A stretch of DNA of 32,000 bases from Edaphobacter aggregans (GTDB lineage Bacteria > Acidobacteriota > Terriglobia > Terriglobales > Acidobacteriaceae), in NCBI RefSeq assembly GCF_003945235.1, contig NZ_RSDW01000001.1:5010001-5042000 (forward strand). Direction: 5' to 3'. The notes beneath the pieces were generated by a model. It had not been told where the DNA came from. It searched no databases and worked only from the letters and a program-made list of their open reading frames with translations. Below are positions 4,601-29,438 of the stretch, one piece after another (the first letter of the stretch is position 1; every line of letters starts with the position of its first letter). The translations under genes were made by a program, and so were the position numbers.

Positions 4601-5065
4601 GTCACTGAGTCTCAATTCGAGATTTTGAAAGCGGCAGAATGCTCACCTGATGCGCCAGGATTACAACGACAAGAGGATCATCACGACCTAGTACGCAAGG
4701 GGGTAGCGGTTCTCGTAGCCGAGGAAAAGTCTGTCGGTGGACAACTGGGACGTCCGTCGGGAGCTCGCTTCCGCACATACGAACGACTCAAACGCCATGC
4801 GGATCTGATGAAGGGTACATTGTGGGATATCCCGCAACTCGCTAAAGTGATCGAGGAGATTTATCGTTTTCCGTTGCGCCAATCAGCCGCGGATACACTC
4901 AACCGCCAGCTGAGATCTGGGATTTCCGATCAGAAGCTGGCTGAACTGACCATGGCACTACAAGACGACGATCGATTCTGCGTGGTTCAGGAAGAAGAAC
5001 ACGCCGATGAACCCCAGATAATCTGCTCGCTCGGGCTTACATCCGACAATAACCCGAAAGCCTGA
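1667..5065 (+). CDS. PLD(HKD) nuclease domain fused to an SNF2-family SF2 helicase/translocase
   Basis: One HKD motif: HAK at 2081-2089 and GSSNLT at 2141-2158. Helicase motifs: GLGKT 2513-2527, DESH 2720-2731, [33 protein letters not shown] prefer ATG 1667 (MPRIFDNIE...) over the track's TTG at 1628. Confidence 0.9.
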
Positions 5066-5072
5066 GGAAGCG

Positions 5073-8393: not shown

Positions 8394-8938
8394 CCGACCT
8401 GCAGAGCCTGACGCTAGACGGATTGCATGAACGTCACCCTGGTCTGACTCAAGCCTTGGGGCAAACCTATTGCGAGGCGGCGTCGGTTTGCTTTTCGCGT
8501 CATCATCAGCCGCCGGTCACTGTCTCACTGAAACACGGTGAAACTCAGCAGCTACGTTTCCTCAACTTTCTTGTTCCTGATGTGCGAGTTCGCAACGCAA
8601 ACGCCAATGAAATTGATGCCACGGAAGCGGCCGCGTACGGTGTATCACTAGCAGCCGTTGAAGCAGTTGCCGGATTGGTTGCTGTTCGAAGGGCGGAAAC
8701 GCTGACAGGTGCAGATTGGTATGTCGCTCCTGAGGGCACAGGTGCAGACGACCTGGAGGACTGCATCCGTTTGGAAGTATCAGGCATAAGCGGCGGAGGA
8801 AGTAGCGATGTCGTCCGTCGCCTTCAGGAAAAGGTCGCACAAACGGCGCGTGGGAAGAGCAACTTGCCCGCAATGGCATCCGTCGTTGGCTTCAAGGTGC
8901 TTGAAGTAGCAATTTCACCTTTAGGGGCAGGAGCATGA
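8390..8938 (+). CDS. hypothetical protein (182 aa), translationally coupled to the methyltransferase
   Basis: ATGA start/stop overlap at 8390-8393, with a GGAGGAAGAGGAG RBS inside the end of the upstream gene. Protein-like composition. A possible nuclease-like D...E pattern (GADWYV ... RLEVSG) is inference only. Confidence 0.7.
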   Translation: MTDLQSLTLDGLHERHPGLTQALGQTYCEAASVCFSRHHQPPVTVSLKHGETQQLRFLNFLVPDVRVRNANANEIDATEAAAYGVSLAAVEAVAGLVAVRRAETLTGADWYVAPEGTGADDLEDCIRLEVSGISGGGSSDVVRRLQEKVAQTARGKSNLPAMASVVGFKVLEVAISPLGAGA

Positions 8939-10047
8939 CGTGGGCTGAATTTCATGCCGCAAGTGAAAAGACCGCAATGGAAGCCGGGCAGTTTTTCCGC
9001 GACGGAAATATCACGCAGGCACTCCCGTTATACGCAAAGGCGGCCGAACTTGAACAACATGCGCTTGCAGTAGTTGACACTTCCAAGGTCCGCACCAGGG
9101 GTATCACGGCGGTTAGCGCAGTATCTTTGTGGTACAAAGCCGTTGACTACGATCGTGCAGAACAGTTGGCACATTCAATGCTCGGTGATCCATCAATACC
9201 GGCCTTTGCGAGAATTGATTTGCGTAATCTCGTCCAGGCCATCTGGACAGAGAGTTCTAAGCAGGCTGCAAATGTTTCGTTCCTTCCCGGGCAGGTGTAT
9301 GTCTCGGTTAAAGGAGGAGAGGTTGTAACTGGCGGGGCACCACTAGATTTGGTTATAGAGAAGGTACAGACGATTCAGGCAATGTTCTATCGGACCATCG
9401 AATTTATAAAAGACATGCCGCTGCGTCCCCGCGGCGCACCAATCCGTGACATCCAGGAAGCGTGTCGTCCATGGCTCTTTCAAGCCGCACCGGGAAGTTA
9501 CCAATTTTCTGTGGCGATTCAGGAACCGAAACAACGTGATTTTTTCAAAGAAGATATTCGGCCAGACCTTGTGGCAACGCAATTTCTTGACATTCTTAGG
9601 GCCACTACAAACGAAGATCAGAGGCAGCTGGAGCAGATCGTTCCCAGCACTGAATATCGCAACGTTTTCTTGAAGCTGTCGCGCAATCTCGCTCCCACAG
9701 GAAAGACCTTCGGGTCAATTGAATTTCGTACATCCACCGGTGAAGCTCCCATCGCGCTAACACCCGACGCAAGAACGGCCATTAACGAGACACTGAAGAA
9801 AGGCCGTCCCCCGGTATCACAGGATGCGCCCGAAGACGAAGAAGAGATTGTAGGAATGCTTCGAGCAGTTGATCTTGATAAAGACTGGCTCGATGTGACG
9901 GTCAATGGTCAGGCGGTCCATGTAACTGGGCTTGGAGATGCGATGGACGATCTCATTGGACCGATGGTAAACAAAATGGTGAAGGTACAGATTGTCAGGA
10001 AGGTCAATGGCCCATTTCGTTTCCGGGATATTGAAGTTAACGAATGA
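8935..10047 (+). CDS. hypothetical protein (370 aa) with a helical TPR-like N-terminus
   Basis: ATGA overlap at 8935-8938 with a GGGGCAGGAG RBS. Long ORF with balanced composition. No motif I can name. Confidence 0.75.
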   Translation: MTWAEFHAASEKTAMEAGQFFRDGNITQALPLYAKAAELEQHALAVVDTSKVRTRGITAVSAVSLWYKAVDYDRAEQLAHSMLGDPSIPAFARIDLRNLVQAIWTESSKQAANVSFLPGQVYVSVKGGEVVTGGAPLDLVIEKVQTIQAMFYRTIEFIKDMPLRPRGAPIRDIQEACRPWLFQAAPGSYQFSVAIQEPKQRDFFKEDIRPDLVATQFLDILRATTNEDQRQLEQIVPSTEYRNVFLKLSRNLAPTGKTFGSIEFRTSTGEAPIALTPDARTAINETLKKGRPPVSQDAPEDEEEIVGMLRAVDLDKDWLDVTVNGQAVHVTGLGDAMDDLIGPMVNKMVKVQIVRKVNGPFRFRDIEVNE

Positions 10048-10352
10048 TAGCGATTTATAGCTTCGTTAAGTTTCGGTACAGCGACCAAAGACGATCGCCT
10101 TATTTCTCTTTTGACTTCAGGTTCAGACTGACGGTATTGCAGGCACACCGCAAAGATTCAGGATTAGAACTCTGCGCCGCGAATTGCCAGGCTGAAAGAC
10201 GCGAAAGATTCTTTGTAAGCCGTCACGAGAGGTTCGAAATCCTTTTTTCCGAAATTCGCCATGCGTTATAGTGAACGGCCTTGTTCACGGCCCACAGCCT
10301 TACCGACCAGAAGTGCTCCGAGCGTTGAGCGGCGCTGTTTTACAATCGGCTC

Positions 10353-11282
10353 ATGCCAAGAAGCCGTCGCTACCTAATTCCGAGCACTGGCGAGTCATAC
10401 ACCGCCGCGAAGGTCAAGAAACTCTCGATCGAACAGCAGACGGAAGTCATGCGCCACTGGTTTGAGGATCGATATATTGCTCCGGATGAGCTGCCCTACG
10501 ATTCCGGTGAGGGTGGGATTCAGTGGATTGGGAGCGGCCCTTATAACGCCGACCAGCAGCTTCGTCAGGAGTTTGATGAGGTCGCCTCTGGCGAGGCGAT
10601 TGCCAAACTATCTTCCGATTTAGGCGACTTACACTACGAGTGGGCTAAAAGGCCTGACGCCAGCGAGTACGACACGGAGGAAATGTCTGATTGGATCGCC
10701 AGCGTCGATCCCTTTTTTGCTTTAATGACGGGCTTGAGCGACATCGAGGAAACAACCAAACGGAAACGCACTGTCCGAGATGGCAAGATCCTTCACCGGC
10801 TACTTTTCGCAAATGTTGTCACTTCGCTCGAAACATATTTGGGTGACGCGTTTACGAAGGTGCTTCTCTCCCGAGAAGATCTGCTCTTTCACTTTTACCG
10901 AACGAACCAGCGTTTCCGAGAATTCGACCCGCAGCCACCGGACACAGAGCCGACCGAACAACATATGAGGACTATTGTTGAGAATTTCATGGCTTGGAAC
11001 ATCTGGCACCGCATGACGCGAACCGCAAGAGTCTACAAAGATGCTTTGGGTATCGAGCTCCCCGCAGACCTCGGCATCATAGGGCCTGCGATAGGCTTCC
11101 GGCACGATATAGTGCACCGCAACGGGAAATCTGCAGCAGGCGTGGTGGGAACGTGGGGCATCGCCGAAATTCTGGCCCTCACGGAGGCCGTGTCAGGGTT
11201 GGCGACCGATATCCAGAAGAAGATCGACAAGCTATCGCCAAAGGTGAGCACAATCGACGATGGCGGCTTTGTCCAAATCTGA
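10353..11282 (+). CDS. HEPN-like domain protein (C-terminal Rx4H motif)
   Basis: FRHDIVHRNG: the R codon is at 11100-11102 and the H codon at 11115-11117. Upstream helices (SLETYLGDAFTKVLL) resemble RiboL-PSP / MAE_28990-type HEPN families. The N-terminal ~150 aa are unassigned. The RBS is weak, so the start is uncertain. Confidence 0.5.
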   Translation: MPRSRRYLIPSTGESYTAAKVKKLSIEQQTEVMRHWFEDRYIAPDELPYDSGEGGIQWIGSGPYNADQQLRQEFDEVASGEAIAKLSSDLGDLHYEWAKRPDASEYDTEEMSDWIASVDPFFALMTGLSDIEETTKRKRTVRDGKILHRLLFANVVTSLETYLGDAFTKVLLSREDLLFHFYRTNQRFREFDPQPPDTEPTEQHMRTIVENFMAWNIWHRMTRTARVYKDALGIELPADLGIIGPAIGFRHDIVHRNGKSAAGVVGTWGIAEILALTEAVSGLATDIQKKIDKLSPKVSTIDDGGFVQI

Positions 11283-12111: not shown

Positions 12112-14949
12112 ATGGCCACTAACACCGTAGCGTCCGCGGGAATATCTGTGAAACGCGTTGTGAGCAAAGAGGGCATTGATCCCTTCGATGCCGTGATCTG
12201 GGAAAAACGCGAGGCACGCATCGACGACGCCAAGGGCAATAGCGTATTTCGGCAGGAGGACGCGCGGGTTCCGGCAAACTGGTCGCAAACAGCCCTGAAT
12301 ATCGTAGCCTCAAAGTACTTCCACGGCAGGATCGGCACCGAAGAGCGCGAGAAGGGTGTCGACGAGCTCATCCCCCGCGTTGTCTCCACCATTCGGGCGG
12401 CCGGGGAACAGCAGGGCTATTTCTCATCCTTGGAAACGGCCGATAGCTTCCAGGCCGAATTGACGATGCTCCTACTCGGCCAGTACGCGTCCTTCAACTC
12501 GCCGGTGTGGTTCAACGTAGGCTGCCATACGCTTGAACCCGAGAACAAGGCAAAGAGCTGGCATTGGGACGCGGCGCGGGAAACAGTCATTCAGGCAGCC
12601 GCAGGGTATAGCAAGCCACAGTGCTCGGCCTGCTTTATCAATTCTGTCGACGACTCAATGGAATCGATTCTTGATCTCGCCAAGACCGAGGGGATACTGT
12701 TCAAGGGGGGCTCGGGAACGGGAACTAACTTCTCGGCCATCCGCGCCTCAATGGAAAGCCTGTCAGCAGGAGGAACTGCCTCAGGACCGCTTTCTTTCAT
12801 GCGTGGGTATGACGCCTTCGCCGGCGTGATCAAATCGGGCGGAAAGACCCGCCGTGCGGCGAAGATGGCGATTCTTGATGCCGACCACCCCGACATCGAG
12901 GACTTCATCCACTGCAAGAGCAGGGAAGAGAAGAAGGCCCAGGCCCTAATCGCTTCCGGTTACGACGGCAACGGTCCCGACTCTGAAGCCTACGCCTCGA
13001 TTTTCTACCAAAACGCCAATAACTCGGTCCGCGTGACCGATGAGTTTATGCGCAAAGCGGAAGAAGGTGGTGAATGGGCTCTCACCGGCCGCATCGACGG
13101 CAAGCCGGTCAAAACCGTCCGGGCACGCTCGCTGCTGTGGTCGATAGCAGAAGAGACGTGGCGGTGCGGTGATCCCGGGATGCAGTTCGATACGACCATT
13201 AATGCGTGGCATACTTGCCCGCGGTCCGGTCGCATTGCCGCCTCCAATCCGTGCTCGGAGTATATGTTCCTCGACGACTCTGCCTGCAACCTGGCTTCGC
13301 TCAACCTGCTTCGCTTCGTCACCGACGAAGCATTCAACATAGCCTTGTTCCAGCATGCGGTACGCGTGCTCATTATCGCCCAGGACATCCTGGTCGATAT
13401 GGCGGGATATCCGACCGAATCCATTGCCATCCACTCCCACGACTACCGACCGCTGGGTCTGGGATATGCGAATCTCGGAGCGTTGTTGATGAGCCTCGGG
13501 CTCGCCTATGATTCTCCCGAAGGCCGGGATATGGCTGCGGCCATTACCTCGCTGATGGGCGGAACCGCATACAGAACATCAGCACAGGTGGCAGCGATGA
13601 CATCGGAGTTGACGGCTGCAGACCCGGAGTTGAAGGACACGCAGAGCGGCGCGTTTCCCGGCTATGAGCGGAATCGAGAACCATTCCTCGATGTGATCCG
13701 CAAACACCGCGAGGCCGCGGAGGCGATGGTTCTCACCGCAACTTCGGTGGCTCTGACGCTGCGGGAGACGGCCGTTAGCTGCTGGCAGGAGGCAGAACGC
13801 TTTGGCGAGCAGCACGGCTTTCGCAATGCGCAGGTCACGGTCCTGGCCCCGACTGGCACGATCGGATTCATGATGGATTGCGACACCACGGGCATTGAAC
13901 CTATGCTCGGTGTAGTCATCTTCAAGAAGATGGTGGGCGGCGGATATCTCACCCTGGTCAACCAGACGGTCTCGAACGCCTTGAACCGGCTAGGTTACTC
14001 ACAAGAGGAGATCGAGGTGATCAGGGAGTATATCGAAGAGAACAACATGATCGAGGGCGCGCCGGGACTTCACGAGGAGCACCTGCAAGTGTTTGATTGC
14101 GCATTCCGACCATCCAAGGGCAAACGTTCGATCGGCTGGAGCGGTCATATCGACATGATGGCGGCGGTGCAGCCCTTCCTGTCTGGGGCGATCTCGAAGA
14201 CGGTAAATCTGCCGTCTGAGGCAACCGTCTCTGATGTCGCAGAGGCATACCTGTCTGCCTGGCGCAAGGGACTGAAGGCGGTCGCAATCTATCGCGACGG
14301 CTCGAAGACCTCCCAGCCAGTCAGCGCGTCCGCTTCGGCTGTCAAAACGAGTGTCACGTCGACGTCTCCGGCCGACCTTTCAGGCCCTCCGGCGGCGAAC
14401 CGTCACCGTTTGCAGGACGAACGCTCGGCCATCAACCATCACTTCTCCATCGCGGGTCACGAAGGCTACCTGACTGTCGGACTTTACCCCAATGGGCAGC
14501 CGGGCGAGATCTTCGTGCGCATGGCCAAAGCAGGTTCGACGATTGCTGGCCTTATGGAATGCTTTGGTACGGTGGTGTCTGTCGGCCTGCAACACGGAGT
14601 GCCGCTCAAGGTCCTGTGCGACAAACTCTCCCACACCCGGTTCGAGCCCTCCGGCTGGACCGGCAATGAGGAGATGGGCTACGCCAAATCCATCATGGAC
14701 TACCTCTTCCGCTGGATGGAGCTGCGCTTCCTGTCAGGACCGCAGCTGCCTCTGTTCGCCACGAAAGAGGCGGCCAGCGGGAATGCCGACAGGGTGCCAA
14801 ACCACACCCCTGACGGCATCTCCCACTTCCTCCACGATGCGTACGAGGTAGGCGATGCGCCGCTGTGCTCAACTTGCGGCTCACTTATGGTTCGTAACGG
14901 TAGCTGCTACAAGTGCGCAAATTGCGGCGGTACTAGCGGATGTTCTTGA
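12112..14949 (+). CDS. nrdJ: class II (adenosylcobalamin-dependent) ribonucleoside-diphosphate/triphosphate reductase
   Basis: 945 aa. Typical RNR core segments: NPCSEYMFLDDSACNLASLNL, VLAPTGTIGFMMDCDTTGIEP, SKTVNLP. C-terminal CxxC...CxxC zinc ribbon (CSTCGSLMVRNGSCYKCANCG). GGAGG RBS before the ATG. Confidence 0.95.
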   Translation: MATNTVASAGISVKRVVSKEGIDPFDAVIWEKREARIDDAKGNSVFRQEDARVPANWSQTALNIVASKYFHGRIGTEEREKGVDELIPRVVSTIRAAGEQQGYFSSLETADSFQAELTMLLLGQYASFNSPVWFNVGCHTLEPENKAKSWHWDAARETVIQAAAGYSKPQCSACFINSVDDSMESILDLAKTEGILFKGGSGTGTNFSAIRASMESLSAGGTASGPLSFMRGYDAFAGVIKSGGKTRRAAKMAILDADHPDIEDFIHCKSREEKKAQALIASGYDGNGPDSEAYASIFYQNANNSVRVTDEFMRKAEEGGEWALTGRIDGKPVKTVRARSLLWSIAEETWRCGDPGMQFDTTINAWHTCPRSGRIAASNPCSEYMFLDDSACNLASLNLLRFVTDEAFNIALFQHAVRVLIIAQDILVDMAGYPTESIAIHSHDYRPLGLGYANLGALLMSLGLAYDSPEGRDMAAAITSLMGGTAYRTSAQVAAMTSELTAADPELKDTQSGAFPGYERNREPFLDVIRKHREAAEAMVLTATSVALTLRETAVSCWQEAERFGEQHGFRNAQVTVLAPTGTIGFMMDCDTTGIEPMLGVVIFKKMVGGGYLTLVNQTVSNALNRLGYSQEEIEVIREYIEENNMIEGAPGLHEEHLQVFDCAFRPSKGKRSIGWSGHIDMMAAVQPFLSGAISKTVNLPSEATVSDVAEAYLSAWRKGLKAVAIYRDGSKTSQPVSASASAVKTSVTSTSPADLSGPPAANRHRLQDERSAINHHFSIAGHEGYLTVGLYPNGQPGEIFVRMAKAGSTIAGLMECFGTVVSVGLQHGVPLKVLCDKLSHTRFEPSGWTGNEEMGYAKSIMDYLFRWMELRFLSGPQLPLFATKEAASGNADRVPNHTPDGISHFLHDAYEVGDAPLCSTCGSLMVRNGSCYKCANCGGTSGCS

Positions 14950-19244: not shown

Positions 19245-19670
19245 CCCGTCTCACCCATCCCAATTCAGGAGAGGTCCCATGTTGCTATTACCTCTCGTCG
19301 ATGTCCTAAAGAACAGGGGCATCAGCGATCCTGATCGCTTTCTTACCCCGTCCTCCTGGAACGATCTGCCCTCTCCTTTTGACATCGAGGGGATGGGGCC
19401 TGCCGTCACACAGATCCTCCACGCGATTCGTTCGCAGCGCCCGATGACTATCGTAGGTGACTACGATTGTGATGGTGTTCTCTCAACCGCAATCCTCGAA
19501 GCGACGCTGCGCAAGCTTGGAGCTCAACCAACCGTCTACCTTCCTCATCGCGACGAAGGCTATGGCCTTAGCAACGAGGTGGTGCACCGGTTCTCTATTG
19601 ATGGCACTTGTCTCCTCATCACCATTGACAACGGAATCAATGCAGCCGGCCCGGTCCGTCTTGCGCGGCG
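19245..19670 (+). repeat. right copy of the ~430-bp direct repeat (part of the intact recJ)
   Basis: See the left copy at 16880-17308. Confidence 0.85.
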
Positions 19671-20799
19671 CCTGGGGATTGGGGTGGTGATCGTGGACCA
19701 TCACCACATCGAAACGCGAGCGGAGGCGACTGCCGTGTGGTCGGAACACTTCTGCGCTGCCGGTATCGCAGTCCTGCTTTCGTGGGCCCTGCTTGAAACC
19801 GCCGGGGCCAGCGAGATCGGCTGCTTTCTGGCCGGTCTGAGCAGACTCGCGGGGATCGCGTCGATCGCGGATTGCGTGCCGTTGACCGGACCTACGAGAA
19901 CGCTGACGCGAATCGGCCTGGGCGAATTGGCCCATACCCGCCATGCCGGTCTTCGCAAAATGCTGACAATGGCAGGCGTTCGTGACAACGAAGTGCCTAC
20001 CTCTGAGCAGATCGCCTTTCGCGTAGCGCCTCGTATCAATGCGGCTGGGCGCGTCGGTCATCCGAACGAAGCCCTTCAGATGCTAAACGCGGTGGACCCG
20101 GACCGACAGGTTGAGCTCGCTCTTTCACTCGACTGCCTGAACAGGGAACGGCGCAAACGAGAAAAGGAAGCGCTCGAGGAACTGCTCCCGATGGTACCGA
20201 GTGACGTTCCGAAAGGTCTGGTGATCTATGGTCCGCATTGGAAGAAGGGAATCGCGGGGATACTTGCCAGCCGGGTTCGGGAACGCTACGGTGTGCCGTC
20301 CTTCGTGCTCGTCCAGGACTCGCGGACGGGAATGGCGGTAGGCTCGGGTCGAAGCGTTGAAGGCTTCAGCCTGATCGATGCCTTGCGCAGCTGCCAATCT
20401 GTGCTTCACCGCTTCGGCGGACATGAGCAGGCAGCGGGGGTGACGCTCACAGTAGAGAACATCCCAGCTTTTCGGCAACAGTTCGAAGCGTTTGTGTGCC
20501 AGCACCCTCCCGGCCTGACTGAAGAGCCTACCGCAGAGGCGGATTTGGACCTCGAGTCGGCTGGACGAGTCTTCCATAACCAACTTCGCCTGTTGGAGCC
20601 ATTCGGGATCGGGAACCCTACACCGATCTTCCGCATCCGGGATGTGTCGGTCCGGCCGGCATCTCCGGGTTTTGCCATCATCCGGCAGCGCAACCGGGAG
20701 TTGAGAGCTCGCTGGTCGGAACCGGTGAAAGGCCGCGGCGCCGTTCTCGTAGCGCTGAATGGCACCTCTGCCACGATCGTGCGATTTCATCCGGAATAG
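19279..20799 (+). CDS. recJ: single-stranded-DNA-specific exonuclease RecJ (DHH family)
   Basis: Motifs: DCDGV, YLPHRDEGYG, ITIDNG, VVIVDHHH (DHH), GGHEQAAG (DHHA1). AGGAGAGG RBS. At 506 aa it is shorter than E. coli RecJ. Confidence 0.85.
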   Translation: MLLLPLVDVLKNRGISDPDRFLTPSSWNDLPSPFDIEGMGPAVTQILHAIRSQRPMTIVGDYDCDGVLSTAILEATLRKLGAQPTVYLPHRDEGYGLSNEVVHRFSIDGTCLLITIDNGINAAGPVRLARRLGIGVVIVDHHHIETRAEATAVWSEHFCAAGIAVLLSWALLETAGASEIGCFLAGLSRLAGIASIADCVPLTGPTRTLTRIGLGELAHTRHAGLRKMLTMAGVRDNEVPTSEQIAFRVAPRINAAGRVGHPNEALQMLNAVDPDRQVELALSLDCLNRERRKREKEALEELLPMVPSDVPKGLVIYGPHWKKGIAGILASRVRERYGVPSFVLVQDSRTGMAVGSGRSVEGFSLIDALRSCQSVLHRFGGHEQAAGVTLTVENIPAFRQQFEAFVCQHPPGLTEEPTAEADLDLESAGRVFHNQLRLLEPFGIGNPTPIFRIRDVSVRPASPGFAIIRQRNRELRARWSEPVKGRGAVLVALNGTSATIVRFHPE

Positions 20800-21718: not shown

Positions 21719-22438
21719 CTAGGGCACGATCTTCAGGGGATAGTAATAAACCGTCTCGTCGCTCTCGTGCGTGGTCGAGAGGTAGTATGCGCCGGGATTC
21801 AAGTGCTCAAGGTGCAGAGTTGTCTCAAGCAGAGTCTGCTGCCCTTTCTGCAATGCAGTCCCTTCACTGAATGGCTCTTTCTGATCTGGCTGTCTTGTTC
21901 TGCTGACTGTCACAAGATACGAGCCAGTCTCACTGAGAGCCGGGAGAATGAGCGTGACTTTTACTGTCCTTGCGGGAAGAGTGGCGAAGGCCTGTTCGTT
22001 GGAAGATCCCCGCGTGGCTGCGGCCGTAGAAAGGTCAACGGTTTCGGATATCGGAGACAACGAAGAATCCTGTTGGGCCACTTCATCAGGGCTCCGATGG
22101 GTGTGCAAGCGGTAGGCAAGAAACAAAACGCCTACGAGGACAAGAGTCGCCAGCGCCGTCAGACCGGCTAACAAAGGTATGTTCCGAGGTTTTGGGCTCT
22201 CCTGACGCAGCTCCATTAAGCGCCGCAGACATCGAGCACAATGAGAGACGTGGACGACACGCGGATCGAGAAGTGAGGGCTTTCGCGAGGACCAGGCCAG
22301 CTTTCTCAGGAACTCTTCATCGATCTCTTCACAATCAGAATCATCAACAACATGTGCCGGTGGGAGCTTGCGGTAGAGCTCAGCAAACCATTCTTCTGAT
22401 GGAACCTTTCGTGCGTCCGGCTTATTTTCAAAGTTCAA
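21719..22438 (-). CDS. putative anti-sigma factor (zf-HC2-like, single TM)
   Basis: HVSHCARCLRRL (Hx3Cx2C), then the TM segment IPLLAGLTALATLVLVGVLFLAY and a ~120-aa extracytoplasmic tail. TTG start with a GAGGA RBS. It lies downstream of a sigma-like gene. Confidence 0.45.
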   Translation of the reverse strand: MNFENKPDARKVPSEEWFAELYRKLPPAHVVDDSDCEEIDEEFLRKLAWSSRKPSLLDPRVVHVSHCARCLRRLMELRQESPKPRNIPLLAGLTALATLVLVGVLFLAYRLHTHRSPDEVAQQDSSLSPISETVDLSTAAATRGSSNEQAFATLPARTVKVTLILPALSETGSYLVTVSRTRQPDQKEPFSEGTALQKGQQTLLETTLHLEHLNPGAYYLSTTHESDETVYYYPLKIVP

Positions 22439-22577: not shown

Positions 22578-23144
22578 TTAGCGAACTACACGCATGCCCC
22601 TTCCTAACCGCTCCAGCGCGGCATCAGCCTCCCGACGGAAGGCAATCCGTATCGAGTTATGGTCAACTTCAAACGTCTTTCCGATCTCGCGCCATGAGTA
22701 ACCCATCCACAGCCACGTGGCTACTTCCTGAGCCTGGGGCGAAAGCAGGTCCAGAATCTCTCGGATGAGCATAGCCTCGGTTGGATCTGGGATCTCTGTT
22801 GAAGAGAAGTTTAGCTCAAGGTCATGGGTTGACCCGACGGCCTCTTCTTTTCTTCTTCGATTCGCCATCTGCTTGGTGACCCGGCGTACCTGGCTTCTCA
22901 GACGGGCCGTGAGTTTCTCCCCCGAAGGCCGGGGAGAGGTACGAAGTGCATACGAGTGGATGGACTCAAGCGCTTGCTCCATAATGTCCACACCCAAACT
23001 TTCGTCATGCAGGTAAGACCACGCCGAGAGTTGAGCATACGGCCAGGTCCTCTGCACGGCCGCCATCAGGCCATTTCGGAGCTCATCCTCCAGAGAATCC
23101 TGCCACTTCCAGAGGAGTTCAGCAGTATAAGTCTTGGTGGACAT
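22578..23144 (-). CDS. sigma-70 family (ECF-like) sigma factor, divergent
   Basis: Region-4-type HTH: LSPQAQEVATWLWMGYSWREIGKTFEVDHNSIRIAFRREADAAL. Region 2 is atypical. I prefer ATG 23144 (MSTKTY...) over the track's TTG at 23159. Confidence 0.5.
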   Translation of the reverse strand: MSTKTYTAELLWKWQDSLEDELRNGLMAAVQRTWPYAQLSAWSYLHDESLGVDIMEQALESIHSYALRTSPRPSGEKLTARLRSQVRRVTKQMANRRRKEEAVGSTHDLELNFSSTEIPDPTEAMLIREILDLLSPQAQEVATWLWMGYSWREIGKTFEVDHNSIRIAFRREADAALERLGRGMRVVR

Positions 23145-23417
23145 GAGTTTTGAGACCAAGAGCGATTTGTACCGCGGATAAAAGAGTACCGTCAGACGTG
23201 TTTTGCGTCCAGTCGAACAGAGTTTTTTCCCTGTTTTCCACAGACACTTGGGAATCCAAAGTGCCTTTAGCTTTCAGGAGGGCTGTAGCGTCCGACCACC
23301 TCCCCAAAGCACCAGTCAAATTGTTCGTCGATTCGCAGGGAAAATCTGTCTATATGACACTTCCTTTTCCGGGCTCCTTGTGCATACTGTACGGGAACGA
23401 AGGGAGAATCGCCCCGA

Positions 23418-24116
23418 ATGGAGACCAACGCAGGAAAGACAATCCGCCACAAATGGCCAAGAGAAGCGCACCGCCTGGTTCAAAGGGCGGTTCGCACCAC
23501 CGACAAAACGTCCAAAGCAGTCCTGCTGCACTCGCAGCTGGAGGAACTGACTGGGCACGGTAGCCATGCTTGTTGGCGATTTCTCCAGCGTTATGGGATC
23601 ACTCGGCCAGGAACCGGAAAACGGAGATGCTGGGATGATCCGGGAATCGTAGATTTCGTGATGGAGCACGGCTACAGCGCCGCCTCTGAGAAGTTCGGTT
23701 GCTCCAGGAAGGCTCTTTACAGCTTTATGCAGAGGCAGCAGCGTGGAATCGGCCACTGCAGCGGGCAGTATGGACTCAACCAACTCAGAAAATTGCTGAG
23801 TGTAAGAGTGGAGACGATCCAGTATTGGATAAGCGCCGGTTATCTGGAAGCGAGTCAACAAGTGTATGGCGGGAAAACCACGTATGTTGTTTCCGACGAC
23901 CAATTGCGCCGTTTCCTGACGCGTGAGGCGGCGAATATGGTTCCTCTGCGACGATTCCCGGAAAAACGCGCCGAGTTTCTCAGCACATATCTCTACGACG
24001 AAAAGCACATGAACCTTGGGCTTCTTCGCACGCGGGAGAGTAAGAAAGAAGGTGAGGCATACAGAGAGTACATGGAATCCAACCGCGGCGAAGATTCGCT
24101 CGCAGATGTCGACTAG
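23418..24116 (+). CDS. DNA-binding protein with an excisionase/MerR-type HTH
   Basis: LLSVRVETIQYWISAGYLEA...GKTTYVVSDDQLRRFL fits the excisionase-family HTH pattern. GGGAGA RBS. Its composition is more protein-like than the antisense ORF at 23316-24008. Confidence 0.55.
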   Translation: METNAGKTIRHKWPREAHRLVQRAVRTTDKTSKAVLLHSQLEELTGHGSHACWRFLQRYGITRPGTGKRRCWDDPGIVDFVMEHGYSAASEKFGCSRKALYSFMQRQQRGIGHCSGQYGLNQLRKLLSVRVETIQYWISAGYLEASQQVYGGKTTYVVSDDQLRRFLTREAANMVPLRRFPEKRAEFLSTYLYDEKHMNLGLLRTRESKKEGEAYREYMESNRGEDSLADVD

Positions 24117-24313
24117 CGTCTCTTGGTTAGGCCCAATGCCTTGAGCAATAGCCTGCCGAGTTTCTGCTGCCTTCCGCTCCTGGTCAGCGGGATACCGATC
24201 TTTCTGGACAGATTGCTCTTTGCCGCTGAGATCCCGAACAGCCTGCGCCAGCTGAATCCTCCGAGGTTCATCGTCTCACCCCCTCCGGCAATCTTGGCGC
24301 GCCGGCGCGCTCG

Positions 24314-24868
24314 CTATGCGGGTCGGCGTTCTTTGATCTCCCACAGAGATTGATCACAACTCGCATTGACGCCACACCCGCGACAGCGGTTCTTCTGATT
24401 GTGACTCCTGTCAGCGCAGTTGTTGAATCGAGATTTACGAACCTCCTGCACGACAGTAGCGAACCACGCAAGATTTTCGTCGGTTGGGACTACTTTGCGC
24501 GCTGTCTCCCCGCTATAGATCACCAGCCCGTAGGGCACTCGTTCCCGGTAGTTCTCCCGCACCAGCACAATATAGGCAAGCACCTGAATCAGGTGATTGG
24601 GATAGACGCCGCCCTGTGCCGGCGGCTTGGCCGACTTCTTGAATTCAACAGGAATAATGCCTTCGGCATTTCTGATCAGGCAGTCTGGCTTGCCGTGGAT
24701 GCCGTATGCGCTGGACCGTAAGGTCACGGCGGCCATGGGCTGCCCGGAATGGTCCTGGTAAAACACATCGCCGTTTGGCAGCCCGAGCCGCCGGCGCCGC
24801 TGCTGGCTCCGACGCAATAGGACGAACCCCACGAGTAAGGCCAGGATTGCGAACGCGAGGAGAATCAT
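24314..24868 (-). CDS. Cas4-like PD-(D/E)xK nuclease, C-terminal half with an N-terminal TM anchor
   Basis: TM segment ILLAFAILALLVGFVLL. Nuclease motifs GKPDCLIRNAEGIIPVEFKKS (D...ExK) and QVLAY (QxxxY). C-terminal CRGCGVNASC (Cx2Cx5C). ATG 24868 overlaps the upstream stop as ATGA. Confidence 0.7.
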   Translation of the reverse strand: MILLAFAILALLVGFVLLRRSQQRRRRLGLPNGDVFYQDHSGQPMAAVTLRSSAYGIHGKPDCLIRNAEGIIPVEFKKSAKPPAQGGVYPNHLIQVLAYIVLVRENYRERVPYGLVIYSGETARKVVPTDENLAWFATVVQEVRKSRFNNCADRSHNQKNRCRGCGVNASCDQSLWEIKERRPA

Positions 24869-25137
24869 TTCAAGAAACTCCACACAAACAACACAAGCAA
24901 AAGCAAGGCGATGAGGAGAGCCGCATAGGCGCCGCCGGTAAGCGCATCCGTTCTTGCGAGTTGCTCGCCCTGCTCTTTATGCCACATCTCGCCTTGCGCC
25001 TGGGCCTCGCGTGCCTCGGCGTCCGATGGCTTCTTCTGAACCATCTTGAGCCACCATGCACGCCGGCAGTACACGAACTCCGCCAACTCACTCACACGGA
25101 TTGGATCTTCAGGCCCTGGCACCTCATCATTCGGCAT
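24865..25137 (-). CDS. Cas4-like nuclease, N-terminal fragment with a C-terminal TM anchor
   Basis: VSELAEFVYCRRAWWLK matches the N-terminal Cys motif of Cas4/RecB-family Fe-S nucleases. It ends in the TM segment AYAALLIALLLLVLFVWSFL. Confidence 0.6.
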   Translation of the reverse strand: MPNDEVPGPEDPIRVSELAEFVYCRRAWWLKMVQKKPSDAEAREAQAQGEMWHKEQGEQLARTDALTGGAYAALLIALLLLVLFVWSFLK

Positions 25138-25197
25138 CCATTTCCACTTTCAGTCAAATTGGCAAATCAACTCAAGTCACACCACAGGAGCTTCGTC

Positions 25198-25785
25198 ATG
25201 TTCCGAGAATTGTCGCCTCTACTGACCCGGCGCAGCCTGGTCCTCACCGTATCGTCGATCGGCGAGGGCCGCATCCGCCTCACGATCACTCCGCGTCCCA
25301 CCGATAAGGATGAATCCAGGGAAGTGATTCAACCCCTCGCCGTCGAAGGAACCGCCGAAGAGCTCGATACCGATCTGGCCAAGGCCCTGATCGACTATAC
25401 GGCGGAACACCTGACGCTTGCCCGTTCGCTCGAGCAGGTCAAGGCAAACATGGAAGCGGCACTTAAAGAAGCCAAGGAAGAAGCAGCGAAGAAGGTCGCA
25501 GATGCGAAGAGGGCCATCAAACCAGCTTCGACAAAGACCGCCATGGCCCCTGCGCCCGAAGTCAGTAAGCCTGCGCCTCCAAGCCTGTTTGATGCCCCCA
25601 AGGAGCCTACGGCCAATCCGTCGGCGGCGAAAAAGCAGGTTGCAGACGACGATGAGGACGATGATTCGGATATTCCTTCACCCGGGGCGGCGGTGCAGCC
25701 CAGCATGTTTGACACCCAAAGCGAGGAAAACGAAATTCTGAAGGAGGCATTTTATGGCACTGATAACGACCACGCTGCCGCGTGA
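25198..25785 (+). CDS. PRTRC system protein E-like
   Basis: MFRELSPLLTRRSLVLTVSSIGEGRIRLTITP ... GTAEELDTDLAKALIDYTAEH, then an Ala/Lys/Pro-rich linker and an acidic tail (DDDEDDDSD). This matches my memory of the PRTRC E family. AGGAG RBS. The ORF upstream of 25198 is antisense to the Cas4 genes. Confidence 0.65.
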   Translation: MFRELSPLLTRRSLVLTVSSIGEGRIRLTITPRPTDKDESREVIQPLAVEGTAEELDTDLAKALIDYTAEHLTLARSLEQVKANMEAALKEAKEEAAKKVADAKRAIKPASTKTAMAPAPEVSKPAPPSLFDAPKEPTANPSAAKKQVADDDEDDDSDIPSPGAAVQPSMFDTQSEENEILKEAFYGTDNDHAAA

Positions 25786-25960
25786 ATTTATCCTCGACGG
25801 CCGAAAGCTGGCCGATCCGAACCCCGCAATGTCCGTTGATGAGGTACGGACTCATTACACCGGGATCTATCCGGCGCTCAACAACTCCTCCTACGAGGAG
25901 CAGCTGACCGAACGCGCCCGAACCATCACCTTCACTACTTCAATCGGGCACAAGGGTTAG
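25754..25960 (+). CDS. PRTRC system protein C-like (prokaryotic ubiquitin-like beta-grasp)
   Basis: 68 aa. Strong GAAGGAGG RBS. Ends ...TSIGHKG with a C-terminal Gly, as remembered for PRTRC C / Prok_Ub proteins (..IGTKG). Confidence 0.7.
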   Translation: MALITTTLPREFILDGRKLADPNPAMSVDEVRTHYTGIYPALNNSSYEEQLTERARTITFTTSIGHKG

Positions 25961-25966
25961 AAGACA

Positions 25967-26197
25967 GTGGCCCGCCCGCTGCGTAAGACAACTCCGCAAT
26001 CCCGCAGGGTCCTGCTGGCAGAGCTCGACCGGCTCAGCCGGCAGGAACGCACTCCCAATGAACAGACCATCGAGAGGTTCCTCCAATGCAAACAGGAGCA
26101 AAAGGCATCGGCAATTGCAGCCGCGATTTCGAAAACCGGGAGTCATCCGCGGGAGATGCTGGCAACTCCGGTCGGCTTGCTGCCCTGGCTGCACTAG
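25967..26197 (+). CDS. possible small helical protein (76 aa, GTG start); overlaps the next ORF by 112 nt
   Basis: Starts 7 nt after the protein C stop. Helical, charged composition. It competes with the 5' end of the 26086 ORF, so it is uncertain. Confidence 0.3.
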   Translation: MARPLRKTTPQSRRVLLAELDRLSRQERTPNEQTIERFLQCKQEQKASAIAAAISKTGSHPREMLATPVGLLPWLH

Positions 26198-27252
26198 GCC
26201 TCAGACGACACAACCCAGGGCTGGTTCTAGCCGCGCTGAAGTCAATCCCAACCTCGTATACCTACACCCAGGGAGGGGACACCGCGGTTGCCTTTGCGCG
26301 CAGCCTCGTGGAGCTGGGCCTGGGCTCGCCCGAGATGTGGCAACGTCACAATGCCAATCCATCGCTGTTCATTCGGAGCGCGATCAATGAATGGCTTCAA
26401 TCGTTGGGAGCTGCGGACCTCGTTAATGATGTGAGCATCGATCTGGCCATCGTCGATGAACTTGATGACGGCATCCGGCAAGACAAAGGAAAGCTCTTCA
26501 TCCTGTTAGAAACCTCCGATGGCTGTGGATTTCTGTGCGTAGGCAGCGCCCTGCGACTGCTTGAGGAAGAACACGCAGGCCTGGGGCGCTCCTTCTATAT
26601 CGTGCTCTCAACTTTCATGAACCGGTGGATGGAGATCTACGACAGTTCGCGAGCGGAGTACTTCTATGAGCGCTGGAAAGAAAGCATCGAGATGGACATC
26701 GAGGACTGGGACGGCTCCGAGGCAGCGTTTCAGTTGTATTGCGAGAATAACGACATCCATCTTCCAGACCTTGTGGCGTCGACTCCCTCCTGTATCCGGG
26801 AGATCAACTTCCACAAAGAATTAAAAAAGCTAAAGCAACACATTCATATGCTGAGGCAACACCGGGCAGGGAAGCATGGAGCATGGATCGAACGTGTCCT
26901 CGCAATTGCTCGCTTCCTCAAGCCCGAACCTGGCATGGATTACCGGGAGATCGATGGGATCTGGGACGATGGCCCGCTGCCAAACTGGGCATTGGCGTTC
27001 CAACCCCATGACCCCATTACCCAGGCCTTCGATGAGGAAGCGCAGTGTATGTACGAGTCCTCGCATGCGCCGGCATGGATTGCGTCGCTTGATCCAACGG
27101 ACACCAGGGACGTCAGACGTGTGCTCACGCACATCCAGCGGCTCGTCACCATCAACCGGGAGCTGGTATGCCTCTCCAAAGCCCTCGAAAGGAGCGCACC
27201 CATTGCAGGCACAGATCAGTCTGAGTTCCACCAAGAGCTTCGAGTTGCGTGA
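26086..27252 (+). CDS. PRTRC-associated protein in the position of protein F
   Basis: 388-aa ORF between the Ubl and E2-like genes. GAGAGG RBS 8 nt before the ATG. Assignment rests on position and size only. The first ~30 aa are Gly/Ser-rich and may not be real. Confidence 0.5.
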   Translation: MQTGAKGIGNCSRDFENRESSAGDAGNSGRLAALAALGLRRHNPGLVLAALKSIPTSYTYTQGGDTAVAFARSLVELGLGSPEMWQRHNANPSLFIRSAINEWLQSLGAADLVNDVSIDLAIVDELDDGIRQDKGKLFILLETSDGCGFLCVGSALRLLEEEHAGLGRSFYIVLSTFMNRWMEIYDSSRAEYFYERWKESIEMDIEDWDGSEAAFQLYCENNDIHLPDLVASTPSCIREINFHKELKKLKQHIHMLRQHRAGKHGAWIERVLAIARFLKPEPGMDYREIDGIWDDGPLPNWALAFQPHDPITQAFDEEAQCMYESSHAPAWIASLDPTDTRDVRRVLTHIQRLVTINRELVCLSKALERSAPIAGTDQSEFHQELRVA

Positions 27253-27925
27253 GGCTCTCCTTATCTATCGCACCGACAGAGACTCGGAGCGAACAGGGCC
27301 CTCCGCTTTCGTCACGAAACATAGCATTGCGGTCGATCCTTCCGGGGCCCCGTCTCTTGGCGCAGGATCCCCGATCCAGGAAGGAGACCTCCTCACGCTC
27401 TGTGCGCAACTACGCAGTGCGCTTCCGATCGAGTTTCTTCCCTCGAACGTGCTGGTCCGGTCGGAGGACTCCATTACGTGGTGGACGCCGGCATCCATGC
27501 GGCGGATGTTTTACGCGAAGGAAAAGAGCACCGAAGTTGCGCAGTTGTCGGGAAAGAGGTTTCCTCAGCCGCCGTTGGTCTTTCGCGCGCGCAAGCGTCT
27601 TCTCGAAGTCCGTGCACTCTTGCGGGACGAACGACCGAACCAACAGACGGCTCTCTACCGCGCGCCATACTGGAACGTAAACGACGACGGCGATGTGTGT
27701 CTCGGCACCGCACGTGTGCCTTCACAGGCGACTGTCGATTCGCTGCCGAGGTGGGAGAGCGCGTTCTTTGAAAGTGAGTTCACTCATCCCAATGCTTCAA
27801 AGAAACTGACCGAATATCCCGGCGGCTTCGTCGGACTGTGGAGATCGCTCGCCGAAAAACGACGATTTCCTGCAGAGTTTCTTGCCGCCGCCAACCAAAC
27901 TCTCCATCAGTTCATCACCTCGTAA
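27203..27925 (+). CDS. PRTRC system protein B-like (prokaryotic E2/UBC-like)
   Basis: ALLIY ... WWTPASMRRMFY ... PPLVFRA ... LYRAPYWNVNDDGDVCLG (Cys codon at 27698-27700) ... WESAFFESEFTHPN ... GGFVGLW. There is no ATG after the upstream stop. The TTG at 27203 is preceded by AAAGGAG. Confidence 0.7.
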   Translation: MQAQISLSSTKSFELREALLIYRTDRDSERTGPSAFVTKHSIAVDPSGAPSLGAGSPIQEGDLLTLCAQLRSALPIEFLPSNVLVRSEDSITWWTPASMRRMFYAKEKSTEVAQLSGKRFPQPPLVFRARKRLLEVRALLRDERPNQQTALYRAPYWNVNDDGDVCLGTARVPSQATVDSLPRWESAFFESEFTHPNASKKLTEYPGGFVGLWRSLAEKRRFPAEFLAAANQTLHQFITS

Positions 27926-27970
27926 GCGCAGCGGACCATCGCGAGCTCTTATCTGCCGGGAGGCTCGTCG

Positions 27971-28783
27971 ATGAAGATTGTCCACACGCTATCGAATCTA
28001 GATAGTCCATACCGGCGCGCGCTCCGCGTTCTTCTTATCGGCTCGGGAGGAAACGGCAGCGCAGTCCTCTTTGGACTGCCATACCTGCACCGCGCGCTCG
28101 AGGCGTGGGGCAGGCCAGAAGGCATCGACGTGACGGTCATGGATGGCGATGTCGTGTCACCTACCAACTGCGTGCGGCAGCCCTTCGGTGCCGCCGACGT
28201 GGGGCACAACAAGGCCACCATCCTGGTCAATCGAGTCAACATCTTTCATGGGCTCGCGTGGCGCTCGGAGGAGTGCTTCTTTTCGCAGCACACCGGAAAC
28301 CCGGGCACGGCCTACGACAGCACCATCGATTTCGTGATCAGCTGCGTGGACACCCGGGCTGCGCGTCGAGAGATGCATGAAGCCTTCCAATCCTGCTCAG
28401 GCCCCTGGCGTAATCTGCGCTACTGGCTCGACTTGGGGAATAACGAAAGCAATGGGCAGTTTGTTCTGGGCCAGCCTCTGAATGACATCAACCGCCGGAG
28501 CCGAACCCGGTTGCGAACCGTGACCGAACTCTTTCCCTCGATCATGGATATCTCGCAAGGCGAAGGGCCATTGCCCAATTGCTCTGCTGCCGAGGCCCTT
28601 TCGCGCCAGGAACCATTCATCAACAGCGTCCTGGCTGCCAGTGCTTTGGCCATGCTCACCCGGCTCCTTCGCTATGGCAGCCTCAACCATCATGGTGCGT
28701 TCTACAACGCGGAACCAGGACGTACAACCCCGATTCCGATTGATCCCGAAGCGTGGAACAAACAAGTGAAGTTACAACGATAA
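27971..28783 (+). CDS. PRTRC-type ThiF/E1-like adenylyltransferase
   Basis: Rossmann motif GSGGNG at 28040-28057. MDGDVVSPTNCVRQPF is an E1-type D.D.V...N..RQ motif. 270 aa. GGGAGG RBS. Confidence 0.85.
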   Translation: MKIVHTLSNLDSPYRRALRVLLIGSGGNGSAVLFGLPYLHRALEAWGRPEGIDVTVMDGDVVSPTNCVRQPFGAADVGHNKATILVNRVNIFHGLAWRSEECFFSQHTGNPGTAYDSTIDFVISCVDTRAARREMHEAFQSCSGPWRNLRYWLDLGNNESNGQFVLGQPLNDINRRSRTRLRTVTELFPSIMDISQGEGPLPNCSAAEALSRQEPFINSVLAASALAMLTRLLRYGSLNHHGAFYNAEPGRTTPIPIDPEAWNKQVKLQR

Positions 28784-28826: not shown

Positions 28827-29438
28827 TCAAAAAACGAGGGGCAGAATATAGTTGCCGCTGGTCGGGCCTCCTTGAGGTGCCTCGAGTGGTGTAGAGGCAC
28901 CGGCGGTGCTTGCTACATCGGTGTGCACACCACCCGCCGCACAGACACCGTTCGTCGGCTGCCCATTAAACCATAGACTGAAGCACTTCGAACAGAAACG
29001 CCAATTATCTTGCGTTGATTGAATATTTTTCCCAGTATGAATGAAGGGTAGAATATAGTTGCCGCTGGTCGGGCCTCCTTGAGGTGTCTCGGGTGGTGTA
29101 GAGGCACCAGCGTTGCTTTCTCGATCGGTGTGCACACCACCCGCCGCACAGACACCGTTCGTCGGCTGCCCATTAAACCATAGACTGAAGCACTTCGAAC
29201 AGAAACGCCAATTATCTTGTGTTGATTGCGTATTTGTCCCAGTATGAATGAAGGGTAGAATATAGTTGCCGCTGGTCGGGCCTCCTTGAGGTGTCTCGGG
29301 TGGTGTAGAGGCACCAGCGTTGCTTTCTCGATCGGTGTGCTCACCACCCGCCGCACAGACACCGTTCGTCGGCTGCCCATTAAACCATAGACTGAAGCAC
29401 TTCGAACAGAAACGCCAATCAGCTTGCGTAGATGCCAT
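28827..29438 (-). CDS. three-repeat Cys-rich protein (69-aa module x3), unknown family, no signal peptide
   Basis: AAGAGGAAA RBS. Each module reads WRFCSKCFSLWFNGQPTNGVCAAGG.H...GGPTSGNYILP. Confidence 0.75.
   Translation of the reverse strand: MASTQADWRFCSKCFSLWFNGQPTNGVCAAGGEHTDRESNAGASTPPETPQGGPTSGNYILPFIHTGTNTQSTQDNWRFCSKCFSLWFNGQPTNGVCAAGGVHTDRESNAGASTPPETPQGGPTSGNYILPFIHTGKNIQSTQDNWRFCSKCFSLWFNGQPTNGVCAAGGVHTDVASTAGASTPLEAPQGGPTSGNYILPLVF
28835..29420. repeat. three tandem 207-bp DNA repeats (coding)
   Basis: GAATATAGTT recurs at 28844, 29051 and 29258. Copies 2 and 3 differ at one position over their first ~162 nt by manual comparison. Copy 1 is slightly more diverged. Confidence 0.9.

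Follow-up and report, generated by a model that had tools for sequence, protein, structure and literature searches.

Two adjacent genes on the minus strand of Edaphobacter aggregans contig NZ_RSDW01000001.1 encode the predicted parts of a Cas4-like nuclease, divided between two polypeptides that each carry a transmembrane (TM) helix. They lie within a stretch of 32,000 nucleotides that was analysed as a whole (hereafter, the window; positions are those of the window). The upstream gene (24865–25137) encodes the N-half, or predicted small subunit, a protein of 90 residues (MPNDEV...WSFLK) in which a helical region is followed by a C-terminal TM helix. The downstream gene (24314–24868) encodes the C-half, or predicted large subunit, whose 184 residues comprise a TM helix, a PD-(D/E)XK nuclease core, a QxxxY motif and a C-terminal Cx2Cx5C cysteine cluster. 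As the first-pass annotation of this DNA had described, the two open reading frames (ORFs) are in different frames and overlap at 24865–24868, where the bases ATGA are common to the TGA stop of the N-half and the ATG start of the C-half. A GGAG sequence lies 9 nt upstream of this ATG, and the overlap is compatible with translational coupling of the two halves. An in-frame GTG at 24883 would extend the C-half to 189 residues; we prefer the ATG at 24868, which corresponds to position 1 of the family hidden Markov model (HMM) and is where most homologues begin. A scan of positions 24000–25400 found no sigma-70-type promoter and two terminator-like matches, both inside coding sequence and at chance level, and an Rfam scan of the window returned no match, including no recoding element. 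Current annotation labels the small subunit a 'hypothetical protein' and the large subunit 'Cas4', a label that wrongly hints at a CRISPR component.

Sequence motifs and membrane helices of the two halves

The N-half contains the N-terminal Cas4/RecB-type cysteine motif, which can be read directly from the sequence. Its Cys24 (codon 25066–25068, minus strand), in the context ELAEFVYCRRAWW, is the predicted first ligand of an Fe–S cluster; it is kept in 75 of 75 N-halves from the related loci described below and aligns, through a profile of uninterrupted homologues, with the first cysteine of type I-C Cas4 (8d3l). Trp28 is kept in 74 of these 75 sequences. His53 (codon 24979–24981, minus strand), within a G-x3-H motif, is present in all 74 informative sequences and aligns with the EGQHLH region of 8d3l, which holds the conserved Cas4 histidine. 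The equivalent residue of SSO0001, His62, is described as a metal ligand (quoted in PMC12501428 and PMC13621843), and His53 is a predicted active-site metal ligand of the pair.

The remaining motifs reside in the C-half. Its catalytic core (codons 24638–24685, minus strand) comprises Asp62 in GKPD (24683–24685) with Glu75 (24644–24646) and Lys77 (24638–24640) in VEFK, and is followed by Gln95 and Tyr99 of the QxxxY motif and by Cys162, Cys165 and Cys171 in CRGCGVNASC (24356–24385, minus strand). An alignment of 22 diverse C-halves shows no variation at Asp62, Lys77, Gln95, Tyr99 or any of the three cysteines, and conservation of at least 90% at Glu75. The D...ExK core and C-terminal cysteines are also retained in the uninterrupted homologues. 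The first-pass annotation had read these same motifs from the sequence and would have been contradicted by poor conservation of the Cys, Asp, Glu and Lys residues; we find them conserved, and the four cysteines predicted to bind the Fe–S cluster are indeed distributed over two polypeptides, Cys24 on one and Cys162, Cys165 and Cys171 on the other.

Profile comparisons divide the pair in the same manner. Against the NCBIfam cas4 model TIGR00372, the N-half aligns to model positions 1–46 (E = 1e-3) and the C-half to positions 58–178 (E = 3e-16); scored as separate chains, the halves reach 19 and 59.7 bits, respectively, against a cut-off of 65. PADLOC Cas4 models behave in the same way on the two halves. 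The C-half passes the Pfam thresholds for both Cas_Cas4 (PF01930, 30.3 bits versus a cut-off of 22.7) and PDDEXK_1 (PF12705, 35.2 versus 22), and the N-half has no Pfam match. The profile of uninterrupted homologues aligns to 8d3l in two stretches, with profile positions 5–71 corresponding to residues 4–68 (the Cys1 helix and G-x3-H) and positions 144–271 to residues 65–203; because of this two-stretch alignment, the membrane segment is located where canonical Cas4 is continuous. Motifs, Pfam scores and predicted fold together place the pair in the Cas4/RecB-like nuclease family.

Membrane helices were called from the best 19-residue hydropathy window with a threshold of 1.6. The best windows score well above this value, at 2.70 for N-half residues 71–89 and 2.74 for C-half residues 1–19, in agreement with the earlier placement of a TM helix at the end of one protein and the start of the other. 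TM helix 1 spans approximately residues 66–88 of the small subunit (24874–24942, minus strand), and TM helix 2 spans approximately residues 2–18 of the large subunit (24815–24865, minus strand) and is directly followed by the Arg-rich stretch RRSQQRRRR. Across 75 loci the hydropathy of TM helix 1 has a median of 2.57 and a minimum of 1.87, and a median of only 3 residues follows it; across 81 loci the 10 residues after TM helix 2 carry a median net charge of +3. Membrane helices are present in every locus examined, with a positive-inside charge pattern. Members of the Cas4 family are expected to be single soluble polypeptides; here, two ORFs with one TM helix each are kept in 75 loci.

A structural view of the two parts together comes from an AlphaFold2 (AF2) model of P0026, a homologue in which the halves are re-fused, computed with an alignment of both halves (pLDDT 80.9, pTM 0.69). 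The model comprises a Cys-bearing helix (residues 14–32), a long helix (39–90), a second helix (93–110) and an alpha/beta core. A Foldseek search of this model against the PDB returned type I-C Cas4 as the top match (8d3l_I, E = 3e-6, probability 1.0), with further matches to Cas4/Cas1 (7mi5), MGME1, SSO0001 (4ic1), Dna2, ACE1 and AddAB.

Conservation of the split and uninterrupted relatives

A search with the C-half over 5.8 billion proteins identified 144 relatives, nearly all of them 165–190 residues long and beginning with the same membrane helix, and a search with the N-half found 39 stand-alone homologues of 63–133 residues. A one-genome-per-species scan produced 543 loci with relatives, of which the best 80 were fetched. 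The final locus set, consisting of the window and 83 other loci, was analysed with HMMs of both halves against stop-to-stop six-frame translations. These loci belong to Acidobacteriota (Terriglobales/Acidobacteriaceae, approximately 50–69% identity), to Chloroflexota, mainly Anaerolineae (32–42%), and to a few other metagenome-assembled genomes. At 75 of the 84 loci the N-half precedes the C-half and is encoded on the same strand; at none do the two halves share one open frame. Cultured carriers include Pelolinea submarina MO-CFX1 (L054, NZ_AP018437.1) and acidobacterial isolates.

The junctions between the halves vary widely among the 75 loci. The ATGA overlap seen in the window occurs in 27 and a TGATG overlap in 7; spacers of 0–30 nt, some of them single in-frame stops with a new start after them, occur in 17, spacers of 31–150 nt in 9 and distances above 150 nt in 13. 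The last two loci (L009 and L026) show other overlaps and are decayed copies. Several Anaerolineae carry a 210-residue HEAT/adaptin-like gene between the halves (L003 5205–5837, and also L040, L045, L047, L048 and L070); at L003, which is 36% identical, the order is an 80-residue N-half, the HEAT-like gene and the C-half. Ratios of non-synonymous to synonymous substitution (dN/dS) are 0.08–0.16 for both halves in three separate locus groups (approximately 0.09 for the small and 0.08 for the large subunit), and both halves are under purifying selection. The homologues asked for in the first-pass annotation therefore bear out the split, in two phyla and across varied junctions. Conservation of the split at 75 of 84 loci, with junctions of such different kinds, is incompatible with an error in the assembly, with a pseudogene of recent origin and with programmed frameshifting.

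Nine loci lack an adjacent N-half. At eight of these (L028, L030, L031, L038, L051, L055, L066 and L081) a refined N-half HMM found no partner on either strand within 8 kb, and the ninth (L063) begins at a contig end. Genomes without an adjacent N-half include Candidatus Roseilinea NK_OTU-006 and Thermoflexus metagenome-assembled genomes. Truly decayed copies, whose C-half is truncated or disrupted by frameshifts within it, occur at L009, L025, L026 (Tunturiibacter gelidiferens plasmid NZ_CP132940.1) and L033.

Distant relatives supply uninterrupted counterparts. A phmmer search with P0026 against 1.84 billion representative proteins gave 1120 matches at E ≤ 1e-3, and we classified the best 150 of these with the two half-HMMs. 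The C-half alone was found in 114 (94 of them with exactly one predicted membrane helix), the N-half alone in 2, and a C-domain with a long N-terminal extension in 4. Both parts occur in one chain in the other 30 proteins, which are 260–581 residues long and have two, four or about eight hydrophobic segments between the parts. This membrane insert is located at the same point as the split. Two such forms, annotated 'CRISPR-associated protein Cas4', are those of Methanofollis formosanus (WP_220682637.1, 274 residues) and Methermicoccus shengliensis (WP_052353351.1, 266 residues), neither of which lies near cas genes. The Methanofollis gene (L085 7576–8825) has a 4-nt overlap with an RNase H gene, and the Methermicoccus homologue (L087 4144–8657) lies near genes for an XPB helicase and a DUF790 (Bax1-like) protein.

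P0026, at 259 residues the only close 'fused' homologue, was considered as an intact ancestral gene and rejected. Its DNA (L084 2790–2920) retains the TGATG junction of split relatives, the frames being joined by a 17-nt deletion just upstream, and the conserved histidine is replaced by glutamine. From these features we take P0026, which comes from one contig only, to be either secondarily re-fused or an error.

The split itself appears to have arisen when a gene broke within the part that encodes a membrane hairpin, and the simplest history would be insertion, then splitting, then occasional re-fusion. An ancestral Cas4-like protein would have gained a TM hairpin between its N-terminal Cys/His helices and its catalytic beta-sheet core; the turn of that hairpin would then have become the break between two genes in a bacterial lineage that is today represented in Acidobacteriota (Terriglobales) and Chloroflexota (Anaerolineae), and the split form would occasionally have re-fused. 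The first-pass annotation had foreseen that homologues might show a single ORF with an internal TM hairpin and had counted an uninterrupted ORF as evidence against a genuine split. Such forms do exist in distant relatives, but they do not undermine the split, since their existence marks it as a derived fission.

Genomic neighbourhoods of the pair

The window contains no CRISPR array and no other cas gene, as noted at first inspection: we found no CRISPR-like tandem array in it and no other Cas match among the large ORFs scanned. Recurrent annotated neighbour clusters in the 84 loci likewise include no cas gene, the Cas1 HMM having been applied to only some of these loci.

A 60-bp intergenic region (25138–25197), with no sigma-70-type consensus in the promoter scan, separates the small-subunit gene from PRTRC_E, which starts at 25198 on the opposite strand; the divergent arrangement originally reported is thus correct. 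The PRTRC-type cassette (25198–28783, plus strand) encodes PRTRC_E, Prok_Ub, an unassigned ORF, Prok-E2_D and ThiF (Pfam assignments). PRTRC_E-like neighbours occur at approximately 10 of 27 acidobacterial loci and at 0 of 57 other loci, and the link is a local association on acidobacterial islands, not a defining feature. Just downstream of the ThiF-like gene lies a tandem array of 2.9 copies of a 207-bp unit (28839–29433), which are 95% identical and overlap a 203-residue ORF (28827–29438, minus strand). On a 4.8-Mb Terriglobales contig (L001 1–5252), Tn7-like TnsA, TniB and TniQ genes adjoin the PRTRC cassette and split nuclease, and this block may be transposon cargo.

On the other side of the pair, acidobacterial loci share a convergent HTH_17 protein (22 loci; window 23418–24116), a sigma-70 region 4 protein (18 loci; window 22578–23159) and a putative membrane anti-sigma protein (window 21719–22438). 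In many acidobacterial loci (among L004–L025), though not in the window, an S41 peptidase–PDZ protein and a TPR–CHAT protein follow this module. Chloroflexota loci display a different synteny, in which the N-half and C-half are followed on the same strand by NAD kinase (nadK, 37 loci), a B-box/membrane protein (27 loci) and RecN (33 loci), in that order. In other Anaerolineae a translin-like gene is often found just upstream of the pair.

The wider window holds further genes of the same island. Positions 1628–8393 encode a fused HKD(PLD)+Snf2 helicase (PADLOC 'HKD+Snf2', with DrmD-like matches) and then a type IIG restriction-modification enzyme, which is full-length and scores 1030 bits. Three unassigned ORFs follow (8390–11282), and the arrangement has the look of a defence island. 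The class II (B12-dependent) ribonucleotide reductase of the island lies at 12112–14949. A RecJ-like DHH/DHHA1 protein is encoded at 19279–20799, and this RecJ-like gene recurs close to the pair at 6 acidobacterial loci.

We also considered whether the pair is phage-borne and dropped the idea. Searching INPHARED phages with the C-half by tblastn gave no match, an IMG/VR scan found no relative, and the only tblastn match in PLSDB, a weak one at 28.7% identity, is to a Paludisphaera plasmid.

A predicted two-subunit membrane nuclease and its relation to known systems

The split is real and conserved, and the core of the first-pass reading is correct. We think it likely that the two proteins are subunits of one membrane-tethered DNA nuclease of the Cas4 family (RecB-like PD-(D/E)XK, Fe–S), which would have originated by fission of a hairpin and would have composite sites. 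Heterodimer formation, topology, Fe–S binding, nuclease activity and biological role are all features that we infer from sequence.

Several observations weigh against this reading. The topology is predicted from hydropathy and charge only. The AF2 model describes the atypical, re-fused P0026 and not the window proteins; MAFFT placed the C-half TM helix onto the N-half helix in its input alignment, which calls for caution in reading the hairpin part of the model, and confidence is low in the C-terminal Cys region. The C-half score falls slightly under the curated TIGR00372 cut-off (59.7 versus 65 bits). The eight loci without an N-half within 8 kb have intact C-halves with all catalytic and Cys residues, and there the partner may be encoded elsewhere or the large subunit may act alone. 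Finally, the neighbours are a weak guide to function: acidobacterial contexts are heterogeneous, and nadK–recN adjacency is common in bacteria with or without the split nuclease gene.

Two alternatives deny that there are two proteins at all. That the ORFs lie in different frames and abut exactly, and that the close homologue P0026 is a single 259-residue ORF, might suggest an assembly or frameshift artefact, or a recent pseudogene of one gene. This is highly improbable, because the split recurs at 75 of 84 loci in independent assemblies from two phyla, with junctions that include whole intervening genes, and because both halves are under strong purifying selection. P0026 moreover derives from the split form by its 17-nt deletion and lacks the conserved histidine, and the real decayed copies look unlike the window, since their frameshifts interrupt the C-half itself. 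The ATGA overlap, the one-nucleotide change of frame and the conserved break position could equally be taken as signs of programmed ribosomal frameshifting or stop-codon bypass that yields one fused polypeptide. We regard this too as scarcely credible, given that there is no conserved slippery sequence and no Rfam recoding element in the window, that the C-half always starts from a codon of its own at the membrane helix, and that junctions range from ATGA and TGATG through in-frame TAA, TGA or TAG with a new start and spacers of up to about 140 nt to gaps of 670–1400 nt containing other genes.

The other alternatives accept two proteins and differ over what they do together. Perhaps the large ORF alone encodes a working nuclease, truncated, membrane-anchored and devoid of an Fe–S cluster, with the small ORF an unrelated or accessory membrane protein. 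The eight loci with a C-half and no nearby N-half would fit such a view, as would the weak Cas4 HMM matches of the N-half (E approximately 1e-3) and its lack of a Pfam match; a Methanosarcina solo-Cas4 mutant without the cluster is, in addition, still active according to the part of PMC13621843 that cites PMC12501428. We nevertheless judge it unlikely. The N-half matches exactly the part of the Cas4 model that the C-half is missing (1–46 versus 58–178), its Cys, Trp and His show almost no variation across two phyla, and uninterrupted homologues carry the same two parts in one chain; the three C-terminal cysteines also stay invariant, which would be unexpected without a fourth ligand. The layout in the window, divergent from PRTRC_E across 60 bp and repeated at L001, L002, L084 and about ten acidobacterial loci, raises the further idea that the pair is a dedicated PRTRC component, the nuclease arm of a ubiquitin-like system on a mobile element. 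This we consider very unlikely: PRTRC genes are missing beside the pair at approximately 17 of 27 acidobacterial loci and at every Chloroflexota locus, the genes that accompany it more constantly in Acidobacteriota are on the opposite side (HTH_17 in 22 loci, the sigma-like protein in 18), and the archaeal uninterrupted forms have unrelated neighbours.

For the two-subunit nuclease that we favour, the following arrangement can be proposed. The small subunit would be tail-anchored, with its soluble part (Cys24, Trp28 and His53) in the cytoplasm, and the large subunit would supply the second membrane helix and then the Arg-rich stretch that holds the nuclease core in the cytoplasm; both soluble parts are predicted to be cytoplasmic because of the tail anchor of the one and the positive stretch after the helix of the other, a location that an Fe–S domain needs. 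The C-terminus of the small subunit and the N-terminus of the large one would accordingly face the periplasm. Helix–helix pairing in the membrane would replace the covalent hairpin and join the soluble parts. The Fe–S cluster (one plus three cysteines) and the metal site (His plus Asp/Glu/Lys) would be completed only across the heterodimer interface. The catalytic metal site is probably composite in this way because His53, from the small subunit, is homologous to the Cas4 metal-ligand histidine. ATGA coupling would give matched synthesis of both subunits.

A part in CRISPR adaptation is not predicted for the enzyme, which has neither cas1/cas2 nor an array beside it. Its most likely activity is the trimming or cleavage of DNA ends at the inner membrane face. 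In Anaerolineae, the nadK–recN neighbourhood and vertical inheritance of the pair suggest a repair-type role, and repair-type processing of DNA ends is possible in view of the recN, RNase H and XPB neighbours. In Terriglobales the pair travels with mobile-island modules (PRTRC, HTH/sigma/anti-sigma and, at some loci, S41 peptidase and CHAT), where handling of transferred or foreign DNA is possible. A more speculative proposal, which we hold to be rather unlikely, is an 'assembly-gated' membrane nuclease: the subunits would be inactive alone, the metal site and an inter-subunit Fe–S cluster would form only when they pair in the membrane, and the enzyme, placed at the inner membrane face where foreign or transferred DNA passes into or out of the cell, would serve CRISPR-independent surveillance of DNA entry or processing of transferred DNA, having been recruited to acidobacterial mobile islands beside PRTRC.

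Cas4, AddB and Dna2-type nucleases have soluble, single-chain nuclease domains in which an Fe–S cluster ties both domain ends together. The pair departs from such a domain in the membrane interruption, in the stable division into two genes, and in the placing of the predicted cluster ligands, and probably of a metal ligand, on separate polypeptides. If the proposed reading is true, the pair would be a natural two-piece Cas4 nuclease, a model for the contributions of the cluster and the N-terminal helix to activity, and a clear case of a gene divided at a membrane hairpin. It would also mean that some 'solo-Cas4' proteins act at the membrane, which would narrow the search for their function.

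The fold class of the pair is shared with the Fe–S nuclease domains of AddB, Dna2 and the RecB family, but those are soluble domains in single-chain, large helicase–nucleases. In AddB/Dna2-type enzymes the cluster fastens the N-terminal part of the nuclease domain to its C-terminal part. Inter-subunit Fe–S clusters exist in other families, as in the nitrogenase Fe protein; we know of none in RecB-family nucleases. The best sequence and fold matches of the pair are CRISPR Cas4 structures. CRISPR Cas4 (PF01930, TIGR00372; 8D3L, 7MI4/7MI5, SSO0001 4IC1 and Pcal_0546 4R5Q) resembles it in the D...ExK core, the QxxxY motif, the one-plus-three cysteines and the conserved histidine. Unlike CRISPR Cas4, the pair consists of two polypeptides, has a TM segment on each side of the break and has no cas1, cas2 or array nearby.

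The first-pass annotation knew of no Cas4 with this organization, and the literature we searched, with incomplete coverage and so as absence of evidence only, likewise contains no split or membrane-embedded Cas4. The survey of solo-Cas4 proteins by Hudaiberdiev et al. (2017; PMC5704561) reports a monophyletic solo-Cas4 group in 'many Chloroflexi' and in Thermoanaerobacterales, and the words 'split' and 'transmembrane' are absent from its main text. The pair fits the solo-Cas4 category of that survey: like those proteins it belongs to the Cas4 family, lies outside CRISPR loci and appears to be inherited largely vertically in Chloroflexota, and we set it beside that clade by this description only. 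The Solo-Cas4 of Methanosarcina mazei, the one biochemically studied solo-Cas4 that we encountered, is reported in PMC12501428: it gives a [4Fe-4S] signal, cleaves double-stranded DNA in a metal-dependent manner, and is soluble, oligomeric and 'without RecB motif'. It shares with the pair its location outside CRISPR loci. Compared by description, the pair differs in having a clear RecB motif and membrane segments; the paper describes neither for the M. mazei protein, and we do not equate that protein with the pair as a characterized relative.

Closest in organization are the uninterrupted proteins of methanogens. They agree with the pair in domain order, in the insertion point, in the Cys, His, Asp, Lys, Gln, Tyr and C-terminal Cys residues, and in their non-CRISPR neighbourhoods. 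They differ from it in being single polypeptides, 31–37% identical to the pair and archaeal, and some of their relatives have four or eight membrane segments.

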